From Candidatus Eiseniibacteriota bacterium (GTDB taxonomy: Bacteria > Eisenbacteria > RBG-16-71-46 > JABDJR01 > JAWXBZ01), in NCBI GenBank assembly GCA_034440375.1, contig JAWXBZ010000057.1, forward strand, positions 1-14,708: a DNA stretch of 14,708 nt, read 5' to 3'. A model generated the notes under the pieces. The model did not search any database. It was not told where the DNA came from and saw only the letters and a list, made by a program, of their open reading frames with translations. The translations under genes were made by a program, and so were the position numbers. This document shows positions 1-13,460 of this stretch, in pieces (within the stretch, counting starts at the first letter, position 1; each line of letters begins with the position of its first letter).

Positions 1-14
1 CGAGCTGGCGAGTC

Positions 15-40
15 GACGAAACCACTCCAACCGGGTTACA
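15..40 (-). promoter_or_regulatory. Candidate ECF-sigma promoter TGTAAC-N16-CGTC firing leftwards out of the window
   Basis: The minus strand reads TGTAAC (40-35), 16 nt, CGTC (18-15). This matches the generic ECF consensus (AAC in -35, CGT in -10; compare Bacillus subtilis SigW/SigX/SigM promoters). The target gene would lie outside the window. Confidence 0.45.
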
Positions 41-93
41 TCACAAACGGCGTGACGATACCCCTCAGGGTTACATTCTCAAATGGCTTGACG
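33..93. repeat. Imperfect direct repeat, two copies of about 25 bp with a 35-bp period
   Basis: GGGTTACAT-CACAAACGGCGTGACG (33-57) and GGGTTACATTCTCAAATGGCTTGACG (68-93) share 22 of 26 aligned positions with one gap. Confidence 0.75.
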
Positions 94-188
94 GGCGATG
101 CCCGCCAACTGTCGTGCCCTCACCAGGCCGCGGCGCCGATGATCGGGAAAAAATTACCGGCCCGAATCTTGCAGCACCCATTTCCAGA

Positions 189-2738
189 ATGATGCCTCTG
201 GTAAATTCGTTACACGCGCCACGCGCCGCTGCCGTCCCCCGGCAACTGGGCCCTTCCCTGCTCCTTTTGCTGGCTCTCCTCGTCAATTCGTGTGGCTCCG
301 GTGGTAATGATCAGCCGGATGTCGAACGGCTCCGGGGCTACCAGCCGGGGGGAGCGACCGTTCTCCTCGACAAGGACGGTCATCCCTTCGCCAACCTGTC
401 CCCGGTCGACCGAAGCCTCATCGAACTGGACGAGCTCCCCGAACATGTCCCCAATGCATTTATCGCGGTCGAGGACAAGCGATTCTGGCGGCATCAGGGC
501 GTCGATGTATGGCGTGTGGGAGGCGCTGCCTTTCACAATATTCGGCGGGGACGATTCGAGGAGGGGTTCTCGACCATCACCATGCAGCTCGCGCGCAGTG
601 TGTTTTCGGACCAGATTTCTCTCACAGAGCGAAATGTCGGACGAAAACTCCGCGAGATGCGGGCGGCCATGTCGATCGAGAAACAGTTCTCCAAGAAGGA
701 GATTCTTGAGCTCTACCTGAATCACGTTTATTTTGGCAAAGGAGCCGTGGGAATTGAGGCCGCATCGCGCCACTACTTTCACAAGCGGGCGGCCAAACTG
801 ACCATGGGTGAGGCCGCTCTCCTCGCCGGCATGCTCAAAGCTCCGGCGCGCTTCGAGCCACAGCGTCATCCGGACAGGGCCCGGGGGCGGCGCGATCTGG
901 TGCTCTCGCTCATGCAGAAGCAGGGCCTTGCCAAACCGGGTGCGGCCGCGGCGGCCCGCCAAACCAGTCTCGGCGTGAGCACCGGACGGGGAGGCCTCAC
1001 GGCCGACGGTGTGGTCGCAGGCTACTTCATCGAGGAGATCCGGCGCATCCTGGAAACGGAATTCGGTGATCGCCTCTATATGCAGCAACTTAAGATCTAC
1101 ACGACCCTCGATATGGGCCTTCAGCTTGCCGCGGAGGAAGAGCTGACCAGCCAGCTGGCCAACATCGAGCGTGGCGAGTACGGCCGATATACCGGCACCC
1201 GTTACGTGGCCGGAACCGCCACTCCGGGAACGACCCCGTCTTATCTGCAGGGAGCGATCGTGGCCATGGACGTTGCCTCAGGCGATGTGAGGGCCTGGGT
1301 GGGCGGACGCGATATCCGGCACTCGGAGTTCGACCGTGTGGCCAACGCCCACCGGCAGGCCGGCAGCGCGTTCAAGCCATTTGTTTACGCGGCTGCGCTC
1401 TCGCAGGGAGTGCCGTTGACCCGCGTGCTCGACGATCAACCGTTCCGGGTGGAACTGGCGAGCAACCAGCACTGGGAGCCTAAAAACTTCAATGACAAAT
1501 ACTCGGGACAGGTGACCATGCGCAACGCCCTGGTCCGTTCGGTCAACGTGCCGACCGTTCATCTCGCCGACGAGGTGGGATACCGGCGCATCGCGGCGCT
1601 GGCGCGACAGGCCGGCATCGAGAGTCCGATCGCCGAGACGCCGTCGATGGCCCTGGGCACCGTGGCCGTGTCGCCCCTTGAGCTGACGGCCGCCTACACG
1701 ACTTTCGCCGGCCTCGGGCGGCGGGTGGCACCACGGCTGATCACGCGGGTCGAAACCGTCGATGGCCGGGTGATTCAGATATTTGGTTCCGAAGCCCGGG
1801 GCGTGATGTCCGCGTCCGTCGCCTATCTGATCAACGACACCCTGCACGATGCTCTCGAACGGGGAAGCGGCGCTCCGGCCATGCAATCGGGGTTTTCCGG
1901 ACCGGCCGCCGGAAAGACCGGCACCAGCAGCGACGGGGTCGATGCCTGGTTCATCGGCTATACACCCGAAATCGTGGCCGGCGTCTGGATCGGCTTCGAC
2001 GATCCGAAGCGGATCGTCTCCGGGGCGTCGGGCGGGCGGCTGGCCGCTCCGGCCTGGGGCCGCATGATGAATCGCTACTACGCCGATTCGGAGCCACCCT
2101 GGTGGCAGGCGCCGTCGAACGTCGTGGAGTACGCCATCGACCCCGAGACCGGGCGCACCCTCGAGGATGGATGCCGGCCGAACTGGGGCGAGCCCGTCAC
2201 GGAGATCTTCATCCGAGGCACGGAACCGGAATCCAGCTGTCCCGACTCTGACTATCAATTGACGTCGTTTGTTCCGGGTGGCGACCTTCACGATTCGTAC
2301 CTATCGGAAGATGACAACAACACCAATGACTGGAAACGCGATGACCGCTCCACCGCCGGCAACGCGGAGAGACCCGAAGATCAGCTTGGCGGCTCGTGGG
2401 TCCTCGAGACGACCATTACCCAATCCGGCAGCGCTCATCTCGAAAATCTGCGCATGACGCACCATTTCAAGCTTCGACAGGACGGTAACGAGGTTCACGG
2501 CGAAGGCGAGAAGATCGCCGAAAATGGGGGGCGGGTCGCGGGCAACCGACACACGACCATCTTCCTGAGCGGCCAGCTCAACGGCGACCGCCTTCGGTTG
2601 CGCTTCACGGAGTCCGGCGGCACCGGGGCCATGAGCGGCTGGTTCGACTTTCGACTGGCGGATCACCGCCTCCAGGGCGAATTCATGAGCACCGACACGT
2701 ATACGCGCGGATACGCCTCGGCGCGCCGCAGTTACTGA
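189..2738 (+). CDS. Class A penicillin-binding protein (PBP1A family; transglycosylase plus transpeptidase) with an extra C-terminal domain
   Basis: GT51 motifs EDKRFWRHQGVD, GFSTITMQLAR, RKLRE and KKEILELYLNHVYFG. Transpeptidase motifs SAFK (Ser codon at 1365), SVN and KTG (1914-1922). The start is uncertain: the ORF opens at GTG 114, but ATG 189/192 gives a plausible signal peptide ending LLLLLALLVNS-C. Confidence 0.95.
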   Translation: MMPLVNSLHAPRAAAVPRQLGPSLLLLLALLVNSCGSGGNDQPDVERLRGYQPGGATVLLDKDGHPFANLSPVDRSLIELDELPEHVPNAFIAVEDKRFWRHQGVDVWRVGGAAFHNIRRGRFEEGFSTITMQLARSVFSDQISLTERNVGRKLREMRAAMSIEKQFSKKEILELYLNHVYFGKGAVGIEAASRHYFHKRAAKLTMGEAALLAGMLKAPARFEPQRHPDRARGRRDLVLSLMQKQGLAKPGAAAAARQTSLGVSTGRGGLTADGVVAGYFIEEIRRILETEFGDRLYMQQLKIYTTLDMGLQLAAEEELTSQLANIERGEYGRYTGTRYVAGTATPGTTPSYLQGAIVAMDVASGDVRAWVGGRDIRHSEFDRVANAHRQAGSAFKPFVYAAALSQGVPLTRVLDDQPFRVELASNQHWEPKNFNDKYSGQVTMRNALVRSVNVPTVHLADEVGYRRIAALARQAGIESPIAETPSMALGTVAVSPLELTAAYTTFAGLGRRVAPRLITRVETVDGRVIQIFGSEARGVMSASVAYLINDTLHDALERGSGAPAMQSGFSGPAAGKTGTSSDGVDAWFIGYTPEIVAGVWIGFDDPKRIVSGASGGRLAAPAWGRMMNRYYADSEPPWWQAPSNVVEYAIDPETGRTLEDGCRPNWGEPVTEIFIRGTEPESSCPDSDYQLTSFVPGGDLHDSYLSEDDNNTNDWKRDDRSTAGNAERPEDQLGGSWVLETTITQSGSAHLENLRMTHHFKLRQDGNEVHGEGEKIAENGGRVAGNRHTTIFLSGQLNGDRLRLRFTESGGTGAMSGWFDFRLADHRLQGEFMSTDTYTRGYASARRSY

Positions 2739-2816: not shown

Positions 2817-3656
2817 ATGGCGAAGATCCTCGTGGTGGACGACGATCGACTGACCCGTGAGTTGATTGAAGCGTTGCTCGTGTCCAAGGGTTTCGAGGTG
2901 ACCACCGCCCATGACGGCATGGCCGCCGTGGCCGAGGTGTCGCGTCAATCGTTTGACCTGATCCTCGTCGATGTCTGGATGCCCCGGATGCCCGGGCTCA
3001 AGCTCCTGGCGGGCCTCCGGGCCATGGGGCGCATGCCTCGGGCCATCGTCATGACCAGCGACGAAACGCCCGAAGTCGTCATCAAGGCGGTCCGCGCCCA
3101 GGCCCAACGCTTCATTCGCAAGCCGATCGACCCGCAGGTGCTCCTCGAGCAGGTGAACAAGGTGCTGGCGCTTCCCGATCTGCCTCCGATCGAAGTGATC
3201 TCGGCAACGCCGAGCTGGGTCGAACTGGACGTGCCGTGCACCGAGGCGGCCGCCGACCGGATCCACGACTTCCTGTCGAAGCTCGATGCGGACCTGTCGG
3301 AGGATCTGCGCGAGTCGGTCAGCCAGGCCTTTCGCGAACTCCTGATGAATGCCATCGAATGGGGTGGCCAGTTCGACCCGCAACAGGTGGTGCGCATCTC
3401 CCATCTGAGGACGAAGCGACTGCTGCTTTATCGCATCAGCGACCCCGGCGCGGGTTTTCGCTTCGAGGGGCTGGAGCACGCCGCGGTGTCGAATCCCGAA
3501 AGCGATCCCGTGCACCATACCGAGGTGCGTCAGGAGATGGGGCTGCGGGCCGGCGGGTTCGGGATACTGATGGCGCGCGAGTTTGTCGACGAGATCCTGT
3601 ACAACGAGGCCCAGAACGAGGTCGTGCTGCTGAAATACCTCGACGAGTCAGGCTAG
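2817..3656 (+). CDS. Response regulator with C-terminal RsbW/SpoIIAB-like (HATPase_c_2) anti-sigma-type Ser/Thr kinase domain
   Basis: REC domain: KILVVDDD, phosphoacceptor ILVDVWMP, VMTS, FIRKP. GHKL boxes: ELLMNAIEWG (N), ISDPGAGF (G1), GGFGILMAREFVDEILYN (G2). No HisKA H-box. Good RBS. Confidence 0.9.
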   Translation: MAKILVVDDDRLTRELIEALLVSKGFEVTTAHDGMAAVAEVSRQSFDLILVDVWMPRMPGLKLLAGLRAMGRMPRAIVMTSDETPEVVIKAVRAQAQRFIRKPIDPQVLLEQVNKVLALPDLPPIEVISATPSWVELDVPCTEAAADRIHDFLSKLDADLSEDLRESVSQAFRELLMNAIEWGGQFDPQQVVRISHLRTKRLLLYRISDPGAGFRFEGLEHAAVSNPESDPVHHTEVRQEMGLRAGGFGILMAREFVDEILYNEAQNEVVLLKYLDESG

Positions 3657-6484: not shown

Positions 6485-6651
6485 TCCATTTGGGCCCTTT
6501 CGGGGCCACCGTAGCACGCCATCACGATTTCTTCTCCTTCGCCATCGCCCGGGCGGGTCAGCATGAGCTACCTTGTCGGGGTGCTCAACCTCGCCGTCCG
6601 ATTCGGTAAACTGGCGCGGGTGGTGGCGCGTTGCGCTCTGCGGGGAAGACC

Positions 6652-7227
6652 ATGAACTCGGAAGAGATTGCGCGGCTCCTCTCCGAACTGCGGGAGGGGG
6701 ATCGGGGCGCGCTGGACACGCTGATTCCTCTGCTTTACGGGGAGTTGCGTCGCATCGCTCATCGCCAACGGAGTGACCGCCCCTCGGGCGAGACGCTCCA
6801 GACGACCGTGCTGGTACACGAGGCTTACGTGCGCCTGACCGGGCGGAGTCGGCTCAAGTTTGTCGACGCCGACCACTTCCTGTCCGCCTCCGCCACGATC
6901 ATGCGTCACATCCTGGTCGATCATGCCCGGATGAGGCTGGCTCAGAAGCGGGGCGGCGGTGTGGAGGCATTGCCGCTCACGGAGGTCAGTGATGTGCTGG
7001 TCGAACAGGCCGAGGGGCTCATCGCGCTGGACGATGCGCTGCGTCGCCTGGCGGCTTTAAGCCCGCGGTTGGCCGAAGTGGTCGAGATGCGTTTCTTCGC
7101 CGGCTTCACCGTGGACGAGGCGGCGCGGCTCCTCGGGCGCGACGCGCGGACGATCAAGCGCGACTGGCAGAAGGCGCGGCTCCTGCTGGCGGGGTTCCTT
7201 GGCGCCGGGCCGGTGGCGGGGCCGTGA
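6652..7227 (+). CDS. ECF-type RNA polymerase sigma factor, STK-associated (ECF43-like)
   Basis: LYGELRRIAHRQ, TLQTTVLVHEAYVRL, MRHILVDHARMRLAQKRGG, and region 4 VVEMRFFAGFTVDEAARLLG...TIKRDWQKARLLL. ATG 6652 is preceded by GGGGAAG. The stop overlaps the kinase start (GTGA 7224-7227). No anti-sigma gene is adjacent. Confidence 0.92.
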   Translation: MNSEEIARLLSELREGDRGALDTLIPLLYGELRRIAHRQRSDRPSGETLQTTVLVHEAYVRLTGRSRLKFVDADHFLSASATIMRHILVDHARMRLAQKRGGGVEALPLTEVSDVLVEQAEGLIALDDALRRLAALSPRLAEVVEMRFFAGFTVDEAARLLGRDARTIKRDWQKARLLLAGFLGAGPVAGP

Positions 7228-9887
7228 CGCGACCCCCCAGCGGTCCCGATCCGTCACCTGGCCGTCCCGATCCGTCACCGGGTGGTCCTGATCCGTCACC
7301 GGAGCGCGATTCTCTCGACGCTCGGCTGGTCGCCGCCTGGCCACGACTGGAGCCGCTGATCGATGAGCTCCTGGATCTGCCGGATGAAGCCGCACGCGTA
7401 TCACGGCTGCAGAAACTGGCCTCCGACGATCCCGAGCTCGGGGCGCTGGGGACGGAACTGTATGCCAGGATGGCGGAGCAGGACATGCGGATGGCCATCG
7501 GAAACGATGCGATGTCGAGCACCGTCGGTGGGGAATTGCCGGCGCTGCTCGACGACGCGTTCGGGCTCACCACGGCCGCCGCAGAGCCTGCGGAGCGATG
7601 GGGGCCGTACCGCCGCCTGCGGAGTCTTGGCCAGGGCGGTACGGGGCACGTGTTCCTGGCCGAGCGGGACGACGGCCAGTTCCAGCAACAGGTGGCCGTC
7701 AAGGTGCTCCGGACGGAGGTGGACACCGCCCTTGCGCGGGAGCGGCTGAAACGGGAGCGTCAACTCCTGGCCCGGCTCGATCATCCCGGAATCTCGCGGC
7801 TGATCGATGGTGGCATCGGGCCCGACGGCCGCCCCTGGTTCGCCATGGAGCATGTCGAGGGGGAGCCGATCACGACATACGTTCGCCGACTGAACCTGGG
7901 GCGCGCCGCTCGGCTGGAGCTCTTCGGCCGCCTGCTGACCGCGGTGCGCTATCTGCACCAGAACCTGGTCGTCCATCGCGATCTGAAACCGGCGAATGTA
8001 CTCGTGACCGCGAGCGGTGACGTGCGGGTGCTGGATCTCGGCATCGCGCGAATCCTCGATGACAGCCCTGTCAATTCCGCCACGACGCAGACACAGGCCG
8101 CGTTGACCCCGGCCTATGCCGCCCCGGAGCAGATCCTCGGTCGGCCCACGACGACGGCGGTCGACGTCTTTGCCCTGGGGCTCCTGCTCCACGAACTGAT
8201 CACAACCCGTACCGCGTTTCCAGATGGACGCTTCGCCCCGGACGCGGCAGGAGATGTGGCCGCACTCCGCACGGCGGAACCCGCCGGAGTCGATCCCGAC
8301 CTGGATGCCATCATCGCCCGGGCGCTGCGCCCCGAACCGGGGGAACGCTACCCGTCGGTGGAATCGCTCGATGAGGATCTGGCGCGCTATCGACAGGGGA
8401 GCCCCGTGGCGGCGCGCCGCGGCGGCTGGCGGTATCGTGCCTCGAAATCACTTCGGCGACATCGGGTGGCCTGGGCCGCGATGGCGGCGCTCGTCGTCAC
8501 GCTGACGGCCGGGCTTCTTGCCACGCTCTGGCAGGCCCGTGTGGCACGGGAGGAGGCGGGGCGCGCGGCCGCCGTCAGTCGATTCCTGCTCCACATCTTC
8601 GAGGGCGCTGATCCCGAGGTCGAGCAGGGGCCGACGACGACCGCCCGCACGTTGCTCGATCGTGGCACCGGGCGCATCCGGGCGGAACTGGCCACGCAGC
8701 CCGCTCTGCGTGCCGAGATGCTTCACACGCTCGGCGGGCTTTACTCGAAACTCGGCGAGTATGACGAAGCGTGGAAGCTGCTGGACGAATCGTGGCGGCT
8801 CCGTCAGACGCTTCCCGATCTTTCCCTTCGTGAGCGATTGGCCAGCATGACGGCGCTCGGGCAGGTCCAGCAGTCGCGCGGGCGTGGGACGGAGGCCGAG
8901 AGCCTTTTCCGCGCCTCGATCGACATGATCGGCCCGAACGCCGGGAGACTGCCGCTCGATCTGGCCACGGCGCACAACGGCCTGGCCAGCATCTTGAACG
9001 AGCGCGGTCAGGGCGCGGTGGCCGATTCTCTGGCGCGATTGGCGCTGGAGGGGCGCCGCCGCCACGGTGCGGACGATCTCGACGTGGCGGAGTCCCTGAA
9101 CGAACTCGCCACGATTTCCTACGACCGTGGGCGCTACGACGAGGCGAGGCAGTGGTTCACCGAATCGCTGGCACTCTTCGAGAAGAGGCTTGGGCACGAG
9201 TCGCTCCGCGGCGCGGCACTCCGCAGCAACCTGGCCACGGTCCTCATCCAGCAGGGGCGGCCGGCGGAGGCCGAACCGCTCTTCCAGAGTGCGCTCGAGG
9301 TACAGCGTCGTCAGCTCGGGCCGGATCATCCCCGGGTGGCCATCTCCCTGGCCGGGTTGGCCGGGATCGCCTCGCGCCAGGATCGTCTGGAGGAGGCGGA
9401 ACCGCTGTATGCCGAGGTGCTGCGCATCAACCGACGGACGTACGGTGCCCGCCATCCGGATGTGGCGAAGGCGCTGCATGACGTGGGCCGCGCCCGGCTG
9501 CGGCTGGGGCGTATGGCGGAGGCGGATTCCGCTTATCGCGAGTGCCTCTCGATCCTGACCGGGATGCTCGGACCCAACCACCCGTTCGTGGGAAAGACAC
9601 TGAGCAGCCTCGCCGACCTGCAGCGCCAGAGGGGGGATCGCGTCGCCGCCCAGGCCACGTTTCGCCGAAGCCTGGATATTCTGACCCGGAGCCTCGGGCC
9701 GGAGCATGAATTGACGGCCCAGGCCGGGCTCGGCCTCGGTCGCACCCTGCTCGAGACCGGCCACGCCGCGGAGGCCGAGCCCTGGCTCCGCGCGGCGTAC
9801 GAGGCCATGGCCCGCCAGTTTCCCGCCGATGACGCGCGGGTGGTTCAAGCCCGCGGCCTTCTGGAAATGGCAAGCCCCCGCCCCTGA
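7224..9887 (+). CDS. Membrane-anchored Hanks-type Ser/Thr protein kinase with C-terminal TPR array
   Basis: LGQGGTGHV, VAVKVL, HRDLKPANV (His at 7974), DLG (8034-8042), TPAYAAPEQ and DVFALG. TM helix VAWAAMAALVVTLTAGLLATLW (about 8466-8531). About 42-aa TPR repeats follow (e.g. AEPLFQSALEVQRRQLGPDHPRVA). Confidence 0.95.
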   Translation: MTRPPSGPDPSPGRPDPSPGGPDPSPERDSLDARLVAAWPRLEPLIDELLDLPDEAARVSRLQKLASDDPELGALGTELYARMAEQDMRMAIGNDAMSSTVGGELPALLDDAFGLTTAAAEPAERWGPYRRLRSLGQGGTGHVFLAERDDGQFQQQVAVKVLRTEVDTALARERLKRERQLLARLDHPGISRLIDGGIGPDGRPWFAMEHVEGEPITTYVRRLNLGRAARLELFGRLLTAVRYLHQNLVVHRDLKPANVLVTASGDVRVLDLGIARILDDSPVNSATTQTQAALTPAYAAPEQILGRPTTTAVDVFALGLLLHELITTRTAFPDGRFAPDAAGDVAALRTAEPAGVDPDLDAIIARALRPEPGERYPSVESLDEDLARYRQGSPVAARRGGWRYRASKSLRRHRVAWAAMAALVVTLTAGLLATLWQARVAREEAGRAAAVSRFLLHIFEGADPEVEQGPTTTARTLLDRGTGRIRAELATQPALRAEMLHTLGGLYSKLGEYDEAWKLLDESWRLRQTLPDLSLRERLASMTALGQVQQSRGRGTEAESLFRASIDMIGPNAGRLPLDLATAHNGLASILNERGQGAVADSLARLALEGRRRHGADDLDVAESLNELATISYDRGRYDEARQWFTESLALFEKRLGHESLRGAALRSNLATVLIQQGRPAEAEPLFQSALEVQRRQLGPDHPRVAISLAGLAGIASRQDRLEEAEPLYAEVLRINRRTYGARHPDVAKALHDVGRARLRLGRMAEADSAYRECLSILTGMLGPNHPFVGKTLSSLADLQRQRGDRVAAQATFRRSLDILTRSLGPEHELTAQAGLGLGRTLLETGHAAEAEPWLRAAYEAMARQFPADDARVVQARGLLEMASPRP
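7242..7304 (+). repeat. Three 21-bp in-frame tandem repeats encoding (G/R)PDPSP(G/E)
   Basis: ggtcccgatccgtcacctggc / cgtcccgatccgtcaccgggt / ggtcctgatccgtcaccggag, with an invariant core GATCCGTCACC. Confidence 0.9.
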
Positions 9888-9933
9888 ACCCGGTCTCGGC
9901 TCCCCCCTGGAATCCGGGTCATTTCGGGCCGCC

Positions 9934-9963
9934 CCTTGTCCCGCTCCGCCTCGAAAAACCGTT
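9934..9963 (+). promoter_or_regulatory. Candidate ECF-dependent promoter (TGTCCC-N17-CGTT) upstream of the large secreted protein
   Basis: TGTCCC at 9937-9942 and CGTT at 9960-9963, with an A-tract in the spacer, inside the 162-bp gap after the kinase. RBS GGAGG at 10039-10043. Assignment to the adjacent ECF is inference. Confidence 0.4.
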
Positions 9964-10049
9964 CCAGAGGATGAAAGGCATGGTGAGGAGCGGCCGGTCG
10001 ATTGTGCCGGCGGCCGTAGCCCAGGAACCCGCCCGCCGGGAGGATCGGC

Positions 10050-13000
10050 ATGTCCATCCATCAGTTTGCGACATCGAGACGTTCCGGATGGCCGGCGCCG
10101 CTCGTGGCGCTTCTTGTTTCGGCCGGGATTCTCGGCGTCGGGCCTCAACGCGTCGCCGTGGCCCACCTTGCCCTCGTGCGCCAGGGCCTGGAGAGCGCCG
10201 GAAGTCCCGGTACGGGTGAGGAGTTCGGACGGGCGCTTGCCACGGGTGACTTCAACGGAGATGGCGTCGAGGACCTGGCCACGAGTGCGCCCTACGAGGC
10301 GAATGACGTTTCAGGCTTTGCGACCCATGGAGCAGTGGTCGTGTCGTTCGGCAGCGCGGTCGGACTTGTTCCCGAGGGCGCGAAGTGGCTCACCGTCGGC
10401 GACCTGGCCGACCTGACGGTGCGTTACGGCGAAGCCCTCGCTGCGGGCGATTTCAATAACGACGGCTACACCGACCTGGCCGTGGGCCTCCCGTATCGCG
10501 ATGTCGCCGGTCATCCGAGCGCTGGCGAAGTCTGGGTACATCACGGCTCCGCCACGGGCCTCAGCGACGTCCCAGCAATCGTGCTGATCCAGTCAGGCGC
10601 GGGCGGCGCGAGTGAAAACGAGGATCTCTTCGGCAATGCGCTCGTCACGGGAGATTTCAACCGCGACGGTTACGCCGATCTCGCCGTCGGATCGCCGGGA
10701 GAGGATGTCGGTGCGGGTGCCGTATTCCACTTTTATGGTTCGGCCGCGGGCATCACTCTCGCGGGCTCGGGCTGGTTCAAACAGTCGAGCCTCGGACAGG
10801 TCAACACGGCGGCCGATGCCATGGGGCGGGCCCTGGCAGCCGGCCGGTTCGACAACGACGCTTATCCTGATCTGGCCATCGGCACGCCGATGAAGGATGT
10901 CGGCGGCCTGGCGGACTGCGGGCGTGTCTACATTATCCGCGGATCCGGCGTCGGGCTTGTTTCGATCGGAGGGGCTGCGCTGGATCCGGTCAGCCTGGCC
11001 AACAATCCCCAGAGTGATGCCCGGTTCGGTTCGAGCCTGGCGGCCGGCTACTTTTTCGATTCGGCCGGCCCCCTGGATCTGGCGGTGGGGGAGCCGGAGG
11101 CCGATCTTGGCGGGCAGGCCGACGCCGGTCGCGTCGTGATCCTGGATTTTGATCCCGTTCCAGCGCCTTCCCTGGTGCCGCAGGAGATCGACACGAAAAG
11201 CCAGCTGGTTGGACTTCCCGGCAGCGGCGCGGAGGTGGCCGACCGTTTCGGATCGGCCCTCGCCGCCGGCCGCTTCGATCTGGATGGCTACGATGAACTC
11301 GCCATCTCCGTGCCGTATGAAAACCTCGATCTCGGCGCGGAGGGGTCATTCACCGACGCCGGTATCGCACATATCTACTATGGCGGTTCCGGTGGACTCA
11401 CCACCGGCGCCTACACCACGTTCAGCGCGATATCCCAGAATGACCTGACTCGCGCGAGTGATCTTTTCGGCTGGGCCCTCGCTTTCGGCCGGTTCGATGC
11501 GTCGGGACGGGACAACCTGGCGATCGGCGTCACCCGGAAGGAGTATCTGTCGTACCAGCCCTCGACGCCGACGATCGACAACGCGGGCCTCGTCTACATC
11601 GTGGCGCCCTGGCGACAGATCGACCACCTGCCGAATCGCGCGTCGGTGGTGCTCGATTGCAACGCGGACATCATCTACTCGCAGCGCATGTTCGACCGCG
11701 TACGGCCCGCCAGCACCACGAAGACGATGACGCTGCTCCTGGCCTGCGAGGCGATCGAGAACAATGAGGTCGATCCCGACTATCTGTACACGGTGCCCTC
11801 CTGGGTGGCCGGCAACGTGAACGGTTCACAGATGGGGCTGGTGACGGATGAGAAGATCACGCTCGAGTACCTGATGAAAGGGATGATGCCGCCATCCGGA
11901 AACGACGCGTCCTATGCCATTGCGGACATCCTCGAGGGGGACAACAACCCCTGGGGTGGCAGCTACGAAAACACGCTGCTGGCGTTCCAGAACCGGATGA
12001 ACGCGCGGGCGGCGGACTTCGGCATGACCCGTACGACGCTGACGAACCCATCCGGTCTGGATGTCACGAATCACTTCACGACCGCGCGCGATTTCGCCGC
12101 GCTCTCCTACTACGCCATGCAGAACTCCTGTGTGCGCCAGATCGTGGGGGCGCCGGGTTGGCTCGTGACGCATTTCATCCCCGTGAGCACCATGGACGGC
12201 TGGCTGAGCATCGGCGGGCCGAGTCCGATGCCGGGCTACACCGAAGTGACCGAGTATTTCTACGCCGGCTACATGGCGAACATCCGAGGCACAATCCCCT
12301 CCGCCACCGGCATCAAGGGCGGCTACACCGGCGAAGGCCGGATCACGGGGCTCTGGTCGGCGGCTGCTGCTGAGGGCGAGGTCTACGCAACGGCCTTCGG
12401 CCTGCGCAGCACCGAAAAGGGGGATCCGGTTTCGGACTGCCTGTCCTGCACGGGCGGCGGCCTCCTCAAGTTGGGACGATCCATCTGCGAGGAGAACGAT
12501 TTCCTGCCGCCGCCACCGCCCCCGCCTCCCGGACCGTATGGCACGCTCACCGGCATCCCGGCCTGTCCCGATTCGCTGCAGCGCCTCACGACGCATGGCG
12601 AAGCCTTCATACCAGGTGACGCCCTCGTGGAAGTCTATCGCCACACGCTGATCGCACCGAGCGTGGGCGTGCGCATCGCGATCGTGCGCAACAGCCAGAT
12701 CACACTCTCTCCACAAGAGTTGGTCAGCTACGGGGTCGGCGCCATCACCGGTCACGAGGGGGCGCGCATCGTCAATCGGGGTACGGCCAATGCCCAGATC
12801 CTGGTGACCCAGACTCACCCCACGGGGACGACCCTGAACGCCACGCTTCCCCCCTCCGGCGGACTGAATACACCGATCCATGGAACGCCCACCTCGAACT
12901 ATCTCATGACGATTCGAAATGTGGGATCGGTCGACATTACGCTGGAAGTCGAGGAACTCGGATACCGAATCGAGCGCCGATTGACGCCCACCGGGCCTAA

Positions 13001-13460
13001 CGTTGCTTCCTTTCAGGCCACACTGCGGCGTGAGGGGATCTTTGCCAATGAGATGATGGGTGTCTACGTGGTCGGCACCGATGCCGCGTGCAACGAGGAA
13101 CTCGACGTGATCATCCGACCGCCCGTCGCGCCGAGCGAGGTTCCGGTGGGGGGAGGCGTCCCCCGGGAGAGTGGTCCGGCGCTTCTGACGCTACGACCGG
13201 CGCACCCCAACCCCTTCGAGGCCAATACTACGTTGCGGTTCGATCTGGCCCGTTCCGCCGCGGTGGATGTGGCCCTCTTCGATCTGCAGGGGCGGCGTGT
13301 TCGGGGCTTGCTCAGCGCCTCGCCGCACACGGCGGGTGCGCACGAAGTTACCTGGGATGGCCGCGACGCCGCCGGCCGACGAGTCAGCGCCGGAATCTAC
13401 TTCGTGCGCGTCCAGGCCGAAGGGGTTGTTCAGAGCGCGCGAGTGGTCCGGCTGGACTGA
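10050..13460 (+). CDS. Secreted multidomain protein: FG-GAP beta-propeller, peptidase S11-like DD-carboxypeptidase domain, poly-Pro linker, unknown beta domain, FlgD-Ig/T9SS-like C-terminal domain
   Basis: Signal peptide ending about AVA/H. Seven FG-GAP blades at about 10218-11603 (e.g. FGRALATGDFNGDGVEDLA, FGNALVTGDFNRDGYADLAVG). S11 motifs PASTTK (Ser at 11712), SGNDAS (11895), MNARAADFGM, NPSGLD, TTARD and GIKGGYT (12315). Pro8 at 12507-12530. C-terminus HPNPF...FDLQGRRVR...WDGRD...AGIYFVR. Confidence 0.9.
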   Translation: MSIHQFATSRRSGWPAPLVALLVSAGILGVGPQRVAVAHLALVRQGLESAGSPGTGEEFGRALATGDFNGDGVEDLATSAPYEANDVSGFATHGAVVVSFGSAVGLVPEGAKWLTVGDLADLTVRYGEALAAGDFNNDGYTDLAVGLPYRDVAGHPSAGEVWVHHGSATGLSDVPAIVLIQSGAGGASENEDLFGNALVTGDFNRDGYADLAVGSPGEDVGAGAVFHFYGSAAGITLAGSGWFKQSSLGQVNTAADAMGRALAAGRFDNDAYPDLAIGTPMKDVGGLADCGRVYIIRGSGVGLVSIGGAALDPVSLANNPQSDARFGSSLAAGYFFDSAGPLDLAVGEPEADLGGQADAGRVVILDFDPVPAPSLVPQEIDTKSQLVGLPGSGAEVADRFGSALAAGRFDLDGYDELAISVPYENLDLGAEGSFTDAGIAHIYYGGSGGLTTGAYTTFSAISQNDLTRASDLFGWALAFGRFDASGRDNLAIGVTRKEYLSYQPSTPTIDNAGLVYIVAPWRQIDHLPNRASVVLDCNADIIYSQRMFDRVRPASTTKTMTLLLACEAIENNEVDPDYLYTVPSWVAGNVNGSQMGLVTDEKITLEYLMKGMMPPSGNDASYAIADILEGDNNPWGGSYENTLLAFQNRMNARAADFGMTRTTLTNPSGLDVTNHFTTARDFAALSYYAMQNSCVRQIVGAPGWLVTHFIPVSTMDGWLSIGGPSPMPGYTEVTEYFYAGYMANIRGTIPSATGIKGGYTGEGRITGLWSAAAAEGEVYATAFGLRSTEKGDPVSDCLSCTGGGLLKLGRSICEENDFLPPPPPPPPGPYGTLTGIPACPDSLQRLTTHGEAFIPGDALVEVYRHTLIAPSVGVRIAIVRNSQITLSPQELVSYGVGAITGHEGARIVNRGTANAQILVTQTHPTGTTLNATLPPSGGLNTPIHGTPTSNYLMTIRNVGSVDITLEVEELGYRIERRLTPTGPNVASFQATLRREGIFANEMMGVYVVGTDAACNEELDVIIRPPVAPSEVPVGGGVPRESGPALLTLRPAHPNPFEANTTLRFDLARSAAVDVALFDLQGRRVRGLLSASPHTAGAHEVTWDGRDAAGRRVSAGIYFVRVQAEGVVQSARVVRLD

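Follow-up and report, generated by a model that had tools for sequence, protein, structure and literature searches.

The stretch of DNA analysed here (the window) is the entire 14.7-kb contig JAWXBZ010000057.1 (14,708 nucleotides) of a 3.96-Mb metagenome-assembled genome (MAG; completeness 93.7%) of Candidatus Eiseniibacteriota. The gene under study is one open reading frame (ORF) with an ATG start, encoding a protein in which a signal peptide, an FG-GAP beta-propeller, an S11 DD-peptidase domain, a proline-rich linker, a beta-sandwich domain and a type IX secretion system (T9SS) sorting domain follow one another; genes for an extracytoplasmic function (ECF) sigma factor and a transmembrane Ser/Thr kinase lie directly upstream (Table 1). 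Our analysis suggests that this fusion protein is a serine DD-peptidase related to PBP5/DacB and to the Streptomyces K15 enzyme, in a clade of its own. All parts of the protein but one come from known families, and what is new is their combination, the private beta domain and the link to signalling.

Table 1. Features of the window, with nucleotide positions counted from its first letter and residues counted in the encoded protein
Feature	Residues	Nucleotides	Strand	Basis or remark
Class A penicillin-binding protein (PBP)		3-2738	+	Transgly + Transpeptidase; open at contig start
Receiver domain fused to RsbW-like HATPase_c_2 kinase		2817-3656	+	
Hybrid histidine kinase, 954 aa		3653-6517	-	GAF-PAS-HisKA-HATPase, two receivers, Hpt
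ECF sigma factor (PF07638 type), ECF43-like		6631-7227	+	Pfam Sigma70_ECF, E 1.2e-47; candidate regulator of the fusion gene
Transmembrane Ser/Thr kinase, C-terminal TPR		7224-9887	+	Pkinase, E 3.4e-40 (residues 129-376); TPR_12, E 2e-63
Block TGTCCC-N17-CGTT		9919-9957		ECF-like two-box layout
Shine-Dalgarno-like GGGAGGA		10038-10044	+	5 bases before ATG; read from sequence
Fusion gene	1-1136	10050-13460	+	ORF call
Signal peptide	1-38	10050-10163	+	Hydrophobic stretch, residues 12-37
Seven-bladed FG-GAP (integrin alpha-like) beta-propeller	39-518	10164-11603	+	Pfam, structural overlay
Ca-loop motifs, blades 1-3	67-75, 134-142, 202-210	10248-10274, 10449-10475, 10653-10679	+	Pattern match
S11 DD-peptidase (penicilloyl-serine transferase) domain	519-814	11604-12491	+	Pfam, PDB sequence and structure matches
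Catalytic-motif residues	Ser555, Lys558, Ser616, Asn618, Lys756, Gly758	11712-11714, 11721-11723, 11895-11897, 11901-11903, 12315-12317, 12321-12323	+	
Low-confidence linker with eight prolines	815-830	12492-12539	+	Translation; pLDDT <50 at 815-827
Family-specific all-beta (jelly-roll-like sandwich) domain	831-1028	12540-13133	+	Model, profile search
T9SS type A C-terminal sorting domain (FlgD_ig-like)	1046-1136	13185-13457	+	TIGR04183, FlgD_ig

An earlier reading of the letters alone (the original prediction) had proposed that a propeller, an S11 domain and a FlgD-Ig/C-terminal domain are fused in a single ORF, and the ORF call together with the Pfam and NCBIfam matches bears this out. A misassembly at 11600-11640, raised with that proposal as a possible source of error, is ruled out. 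Contigs from two other sequencing runs, of the same habitat and year as the window's likely source and thus possibly from one campaign rather than independent, span the propeller-S11 junction with 0 differences each (X2, 11052-11806; X3, 10930-11936), and the same architecture recurs in homologues from independent assemblies. Two further runs, X6 and X7, had no cover at 11451-11704 and are uninformative either way. The full-length AlphaFold2 model, built with 31 homologues, reached a mean predicted local distance difference test (pLDDT) score of 83.9 and a predicted TM-score (pTM) of 0.75, with low confidence only in the signal peptide (pLDDT <50 at residues 1-36), two short loops and the linkers 815-827 and 1029-1043. 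Signal peptide cleavage after VAVA is probable, and the conserved mature N-terminus of the 31 homologues, AHLxL[IV]RQGxES, begins at residue 38. The run of eight prolines that had been noticed after the S11 domain is indeed present, in the linker before the beta domain.

The Pfam Peptidase_S11 profile matched the fusion protein at E 3e-26 (92.8 bits; cut-off 27.6), in a partial match of residues 531-694 to profile positions 14-169 of 239. The SxxK, SxN, NPSGL and KxG motifs named in the original prediction were all found between residues 554 and 758, as ASTTK (554-558), SGND (616-619), NPSGL (666-670) and KGG (756-758). Searching the PDB by sequence returned the K15 DD-transpeptidase as the best match (E 3e-15), with Bacillus subtilis DacB at E 8.3e-15, and structural overlay of the modelled domain (residues 520-814) gave Z 31.6 with Francisella tularensis DacD (6osu_A), Z 30.6 with B. 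subtilis DacB (3mfd_B; root-mean-square deviation (rmsd) 1.7, 237 aligned) and Z 30.5 with K15 (1es2_A; rmsd 2.1, 256/260 residues). As far as a predicted model shows, these overlays support the PBP5/DacA-like domain that had been proposed and speak against the converse possibility, that the domain does not adopt the penicilloyl-serine transferase fold. Residues S555, K558, S616, N618, D619, K756, G758 and T760 are invariant in all 31 aligned members, which share 29-73% identity, and the quartet S555/K558/S616/K756 is kept whole in 79 of 82 wider family members; within SxN, Ser is present in 79/82 and Asn in 71/82. Judged from sequence and model, the S11 domain looks catalytically competent, and both DD-peptidase activity and penicillin binding are predicted. 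Cys537 and Cys813, invariant among the 31 aligned members, probably form a disulfide. In three wider members (P0161, P0174 and P0182) the catalytic Ser, Lys and Ser are replaced, for example by N-L-E, N-I-L or R-M-L, and these proteins are possible pseudo-enzymes inside the family.

The likeness to the K15 DD-transpeptidase (MEROPS S11; PDB 1SKF, 1ES2-1ES5) lies in the best sequence match, the near-complete overlay and the organisation of K15 as a single-domain S11 core without a PBP5-type C-domain, whereas the K15 chain, of 262 residues, lacks the propeller, the beta domain and the sorting domain. Its best-scoring entry, 1es4, is presumably the C98N mutant, which would fit the SGN found here as against the SGC that we take to be the wild-type sequence, and K15 reportedly keeps the KTG motif. 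With PBP5/DacA, DacD and DacB (E. coli 1NZO, F. tularensis 6OSU, B. subtilis 3MFD) the domain shares its fold and has SxxK, SxN and K-x-G in register; it differs from them in that the fusion protein had no match to PBP5_C (PF07943), never has Thr in the middle of KxG (n=31), falls far under the equivalog cut-offs and forms its own clade. The NCBIfam DacA, DacC and DacD equivalogs scored 41-51 bits against cut-offs of 610-765 (DacA 41.5 against 694), and because all NCBIfam equivalogs remained far below cut-off, an assignment of the domain to DacA, DacC, DacD, PbpG or PBP4 is not possible. A tree placed the 31 fused S11 domains on one side of a branch with an SH-like approximate likelihood ratio test (SH-aLRT) value of 99, opposite 60 stand-alone S11 proteins (59 drawn from 118 of the 120 listed matches, plus the genome's own S11), a topology that points to a single origin of the fused domains; the best stand-alone relative scored only 111 bits.

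The N-terminal part of the protein matched Pfam FG-GAP in 5 stretches (E 6.4e-41) and holds seven FG-GAP units, six of which fit G-x-F-...-L at residues 66, 133, 201, 265, 407 and 480, the seventh being GYFFDSAGPLDL at residues 333-344. Overlaying the model (residues 39-524) on integrin alpha5 (4wjk_A) with VIA-align gave Z 37.5 and rmsd 2.9 over 400 aligned residues, and Foldseek gave E 2.3e-17 with a TM-score of 0.73 on the target. The motif pattern search agreed with the earlier description of seven blades whose Ca loops are intact at first and degenerate later: D-x-[DN]-x-D-G-x-x-D is complete in blades 1-3 only and degenerate in the other four. Across 31 sequences, positions D67, D71, G72, D75, D138, D142 and D210 do not vary, and the loops are predicted metal sites. 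Seven blades, the close overlay and the Ca-type loops are shared with the integrin alpha-subunit propeller; the fusion protein, in contrast, lacks a beta-subunit partner as well as thigh and calf domains, its propeller is joined directly to an enzyme, and its Ca loops sit in blades 1-3, whereas those of integrins are said to be carried in blades 4-7.

The propeller and the S11 domain had been described as joined almost without a linker, and strand positions in the model agree, with the last propeller strand at 513-518, the first S11 strand at 531-535 and no linker between the domains. The junction A-P-W-R-Q (519-523) is invariant or nearly so in the 31 homologues. When the propeller and the S11 domain were submitted to complex prediction as two chains, the interface score ipSAE was 0.49 (runs 0.49, 0.34 and 0.52), against 0.00 for the highest of 3 controls, with partner pLDDT of at least 84 and agreement between the runs in at least 69% of contacts. 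In the calibration of the test, this mark at a score of 0.60 or less was obtained for only 18 of 157 solved complexes, and both passing mismatches fell there too. Because the junction residues are invariant, the pTM is 0.75 and the complex test is weakly supportive, a rigid coupling of propeller and peptidase is suggested.

The domain that the original prediction had left as unknown is still without a known family (Pfam, 0/16 members at a meaningful E-value); the description can be corrected to a family-specific beta-sandwich with generic structural matches only. Modelled alone with 16 sequences it reached pLDDT 86.6, and its best VIA matches, at Z up to 7.2 (GOLD, PirA, Ena and the Tk-SP C-domain), are of the generic jelly-roll or sandwich type. 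Foldseek gave nothing convincing for this domain (TM at most 0.2, or short cupin pieces), and the ESM Atlas held no usable match for either the whole fusion protein or the beta domain alone. When 1.84 billion representatives were searched with a beta-domain profile, 146 proteins (clusters at 50% identity) were retrieved. By family hidden Markov models (HMMs), 70 of the 72 proteins of at least 1000 aa carry both propeller and S11 domain, the two exceptions being weak multi-stretch matches. Among the 74 shorter proteins, 34 carry part of the propeller or S11 domain, consistent with cut gene calls, and the remaining 40 (115-683 aa, most 140-400) carry neither and could be C-terminal fragments or stand-alone forms. 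Of the 35 close clusters returned by a search with residues 510-1040, 33 have annotations for FG-GAP as well as S11; full-length members measure 1033-1147 aa, and identity goes down to 26%. As judged from these sequences, the architecture is that of a small coherent family to which the beta domain is essentially private.

The claim that the fusion is unusual and uncharacterised held in one respect, in that no description of an FG-GAP/propeller-DD-peptidase fusion was found in a literature search whose coverage excluded subscription journals, and no T9SS cargo with a DD-peptidase was found in the literature searched. It did not hold in the other, since the fusion is no one-off: the 146 representatives form a conserved family. 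At source the homologues are named no more specifically than "D-alanyl-D-alanine carboxypeptidase", "T9SS type A sorting domain-containing protein" or "hypothetical protein". Within the phylum, members occur in 26/201 genomes and 21/82 genera, with up to 4-5 matches per genome (counts that include the unpublished genome G015), and further members come from MAGs titled Planctomycetota, Verrucomicrobiota-type and Limnocylindria. An FG-GAP-pattern scan of genome contigs yielded 78 loci, mostly of unrelated propeller proteins, 7 of which are family members.

Several members depart from the common form. The 813-aa member P0018, labelled Candidatus Eisenbacteria by NCBI, appears to belong to genome G144, of the same class as the window's genome, and its locus (L100) holds the family member as two overlapping ORFs, 7907-10348 (-) and 10296-11819 (-), comprising a 507-aa FG-GAP part and the 813-aa S11-beta-CTD part (CTD, C-terminal domain) that is P0018, through a frameshift or a true split. 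Genome G040 has four copies in total, two of which (L097, G040:C1:1092800-1112200) are paralogues on opposite strands about 5 kb apart, with starts near 11444 and ~14900; a Ser/Thr kinase match falls in the interval. In a MAG labelled Akkermansiaceae the protein (L013, 3707-8086, +) is 1459 aa long, with about 500 additional N-terminal residues ahead of the propeller and a weak S11 match of 46 bits.

The C-terminal domain passed the T9SS type A sorting model TIGR04183 with 30.2 bits against an NCBIfam cut-off of 23, scored 35.6 bits at 13203-13448 in a genome-wide scan and matched Pfam FlgD_ig at E 1.4e-9 (residues 1058-1124). The same genome contains a PorU equivalog (520.5 bits against 420), an SprA_N match (72.3 bits against 27) in a 2321-aa SprA-like ORF and 104 matches to the type A sorting domain. 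Because the genome thus holds PorU, an SprA-like translocon and about 100 further genes for cargo with a sorting domain, export of the fusion protein across the outer membrane is likely; these matches, together with the signal peptide, support the export part of the earlier suggestion of a surface-displayed or released enzyme. Gingipains and other Bacteroidota proteins are examples of T9SS type A cargo. The fusion protein resembles such cargo in its TIGR04183 score above cut-off and in the presence of PorU and an SprA-like protein in its genome, and differs in that its host is not a member of the Bacteroidota.

A separate, single-copy S11 gene of the KTG type is present in 38/61 genomes of the class, including that of the window. 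The patchy, multi-copy spread of the fusion alongside this ordinary S11 gene therefore points to an accessory exported enzyme rather than a trimmer of the cell's own wall. The ordinary gene itself (G000:C92; L001, 3-683) is followed 53 bases on by an FG-GAP T9SS cargo gene (736-2079). A functional link between stand-alone S11 and FG-GAP genes was considered and rejected as coincidence, with adjacency in only 1/28 relatives (L141, from the unpublished genome G015, left out).

The sigma factor and kinase genes overlap by 4 bases, with no anti-sigma gene beside them, and the kinase has one hydrophobic segment (residues ~414-438) between its kinase and TPR parts, which would place the TPR part outside the inner membrane. 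The recurrent link between these genes and the fusion gene had been missed in the original prediction. Across 27 distinct loci (the window plus 7 and 19 others), an orthologous sigma/kinase pair directly adjoins the fusion gene in 6, being co-directional in the window, L004, L107 and L108 and divergent in L009 and L113; in L106 the pair lies 4.4 kb from the fusion gene. Strong PF07638 sigmas are scarce in most of these genomes, numbering 6 in G000 (the window's genome), 5 in G102 and 4 in G143, and two of the five in G102 adjoin its two fusion paralogues. At the DAED position, placed by eye against VHEAY, all 7 of the 7 linked sigmas have no acidic motif and carry Thr/Ser-containing residues (Q-T-T-V in the window); the label ECF43-like follows this motif rather than the published group HMMs. 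According to the part of the review consulted (PMC8999054, section 3.4), loss of DAED with Thr/Ser in its place is the mark of ECF43 sigmas that are activated by kinase phosphorylation. The outputs described in the parts consulted are polymyxin resistance for EcfP/PknT of Vibrio parahaemolyticus (PMC8999054) and a type VI secretion system (T6SS) used against amoebae for EcfK/PknS of Xanthomonas citri (PMC8999054, PMC13147305). Both pairs resemble the one studied here in that the sigma gene adjoins a transmembrane kinase gene and DAED is replaced by Thr-containing residues, and they differ in output, polymyxin resistance or T6SS as against a candidate secreted DD-peptidase. The block TGTCCC-N17-CGTT was seen upstream of the fusion gene only in the window and in L004 (~6715-6770), a close relative at 74% identity; inspection of L009 and of the regions ahead of the sigma genes showed no counterpart, and a sigma-70 promoter scan returned 0 sites.

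Two more PF07638 sigma/kinase pairs of the window's genome adjoin large T9SS cargo genes (G000:C117, L114 494-7803; G000:C2, L115 1-9223), which encode a 1078-aa Ig-rich protein and a 1894-aa DUF7948/SBBP/Laminin_G_3 protein, and one of the two kinases has WD40 repeats in place of TPR. This arrangement suggests a general pairing of sigma/kinase modules with surface proteins.

S11 enzymes and other low-molecular-weight PBPs are normally periplasmic housekeeping enzymes. The reading that we tentatively favour, and to which we give somewhat less than an even chance, is that the fusion protein is a regulated, T9SS-exported DD-peptidase acting on peptidoglycan other than the producer's own, in which the propeller forms a rigid, Ca-stabilised binding platform. 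The protein would leave the cytoplasm by Sec export and fold in the periplasm, where the Cys537-Cys813 disulfide would probably form; the T9SS would then recognise the type A C-terminal domain and transfer the protein across the outer membrane, and PorU would cleave off that domain, leading to release or surface attachment. Outside the cell, the Ca-loaded propeller, rigidly joined through APWRQ, could serve as the binding platform while Ser555 would attack D-Ala-D-Ala-type or cross-linked stem peptides of non-self peptidoglycan, either in neighbouring cells whose walls are exposed or in wall debris of the mat. The gene would probably be switched on by the ECF43-like sigma after its phosphorylation by the transmembrane TPR Ser/Thr kinase. 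Penicillin-binding-type peptidases that act outside the producer's own wall compartment reportedly include the Bdellovibrio DD-endopeptidases Bd0816 and Bd3459 and the actinomycete enzymes R61 and R39; these are said to belong to other families (PBP4/S13 and S12) and to lack a propeller, a T9SS domain and a sigma/kinase link. A bolder extension, speculative and on the whole unlikely, is that sigma factor, kinase and fusion protein make up a sense-and-respond module of wall-directed warfare or defence, in which the periplasmic TPR kinase would detect neighbours, attack or wall fragments and then phosphorylate the sigma, and the secreted, propeller-guided DD-peptidase would fasten onto foreign walls and strip D-Ala-D-Ala donors or cross-links from them. 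In a wider version, every ECF43-like sigma/kinase pair of these bacteria may drive a T9SS surface protein dedicated to it; the genome showed three of these pairs.

Several observations weigh against the reading of an exported enzyme directed at foreign walls. The wall of a diderm neighbour is out of an extracellular enzyme's reach as long as the cell is intact. As regards export, the PorV-like gene directly after porU scored 111 bits, under its cut-off of 250, and GldM (TIGR03517) had no match in the 93.7%-complete genome, a model that matched no control genome either; some family members from other lineages have no recognisable T9SS domain, and T9SS export is therefore not universal for the family. 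As regards regulation, 20/27 loci have no sigma/kinase pair nearby and their other neighbours are heterogeneous, the 4.4-kb proximity may be a matter of chance in G040, which has 44 such sigmas, and no RNA run carrying the fusion gene was found among the runs listed. As regards the enzyme, the modelled propeller-S11 interface is weakly supported, and the Thr of canonical KTG is absent from all 31 aligned members, 19 of which have Gly and 12 Pro in the middle of KxG; in the 82 wider members Thr or Ser occupies this position in 9. Among the 120 nearest stand-alone S11 proteins listed, KTG dominates and KIG is frequent, and this position therefore tolerates change.

The same features may be accounted for in other ways. 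If the kinase sensed envelope or antibiotic stress, the secreted domain could be an inducible extracellular beta-lactam trap or weak beta-lactamase, acylated by beta-lactams, and perhaps hydrolysing them, before they reach the periplasm. The S11 domain also passed Pfam Beta-lactamase2 (24.6 bits; cut-off 22), and exported actinomycete DD-peptidases have long been discussed as beta-lactam traps. A response to antibiotics is moreover among the ECF43/kinase outputs given in the consulted part of the review, with EcfP/PknT and polymyxin (PMC8999054). A stoichiometric trap would be costly, however, no deacylation residue is marked in the sequence (the Omega-loop Glu was not looked for), and the large propeller and beta domain would have no role; we regard this explanation as unlikely, though worth keeping in play. 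Remodelling of the producer's own peptidoglycan in the periplasm would accord with the normal location of S11 enzymes, with the class A PBP gene on the same contig and with the members in other lineages that have no T9SS domain. The C-terminal domain would then be unused for export, or the enzyme would act in transit, and the propeller would be a scaffold for wall-synthesis partners. This is hard to square with a sorting domain above the NCBI cut-off in a genome that has the machinery, with a family that is patchy (26/201 genomes) and multi-copy beside a separate conserved S11 gene, and with the 7 kb and the signalling genes between the PBP gene and the fusion gene, and it appears improbable.

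FG-GAP propellers are adhesion or ligand-binding modules, and the protein might be mainly an adhesin, attached to a surface through its propeller and beta domain, with the S11 domain as a non-catalytic module for binding D-Ala-D-Ala. The three members that lost their catalytic residues would suit such a role, but Ser/Lys/Ser/Lys is kept in 79/82 and the six motif residues in 31/31 down to 29% identity, which argues for selection for chemistry and makes this explanation very improbable. If the exported DD-peptidase reading holds, a family that carries an S11 enzyme across the outer membrane extends where, and on what, DD-peptidases act, here with the enzyme joined to an integrin-like propeller and to a domain without recognised relatives, and linked in 6/27 loci to a sigma of the phosphorylation-activated type. 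For uncultured bacteria of mats and sediments, the enzyme may be a weapon against neighbours or a way of feeding on their walls, and the secreted DD-peptidase of the sense-and-respond module, if that module is real, would be the enzymatic equivalent of wall inhibition of the vancomycin type. The family also points to a third class of output from ECF43 signalling, beside the T6SS and polymyxin resistance named in the consulted part of the review (PMC8999054).

The remaining genes of the window lie further upstream. The class A PBP gene, 7 kb from the fusion gene, showed no such linkage in the related loci examined. Other recurrent neighbours of the fusion gene were considered, namely M20 peptidases in 2 loci (L017 and L098) and FG-GAP/T9SS cargo in several, and none was convincing. 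The genes for the receiver/RsbW-like kinase and for the hybrid histidine kinase are convergent with a 4-base overlap, and a relative of the hybrid histidine kinase is also found near the fusion gene in L107.

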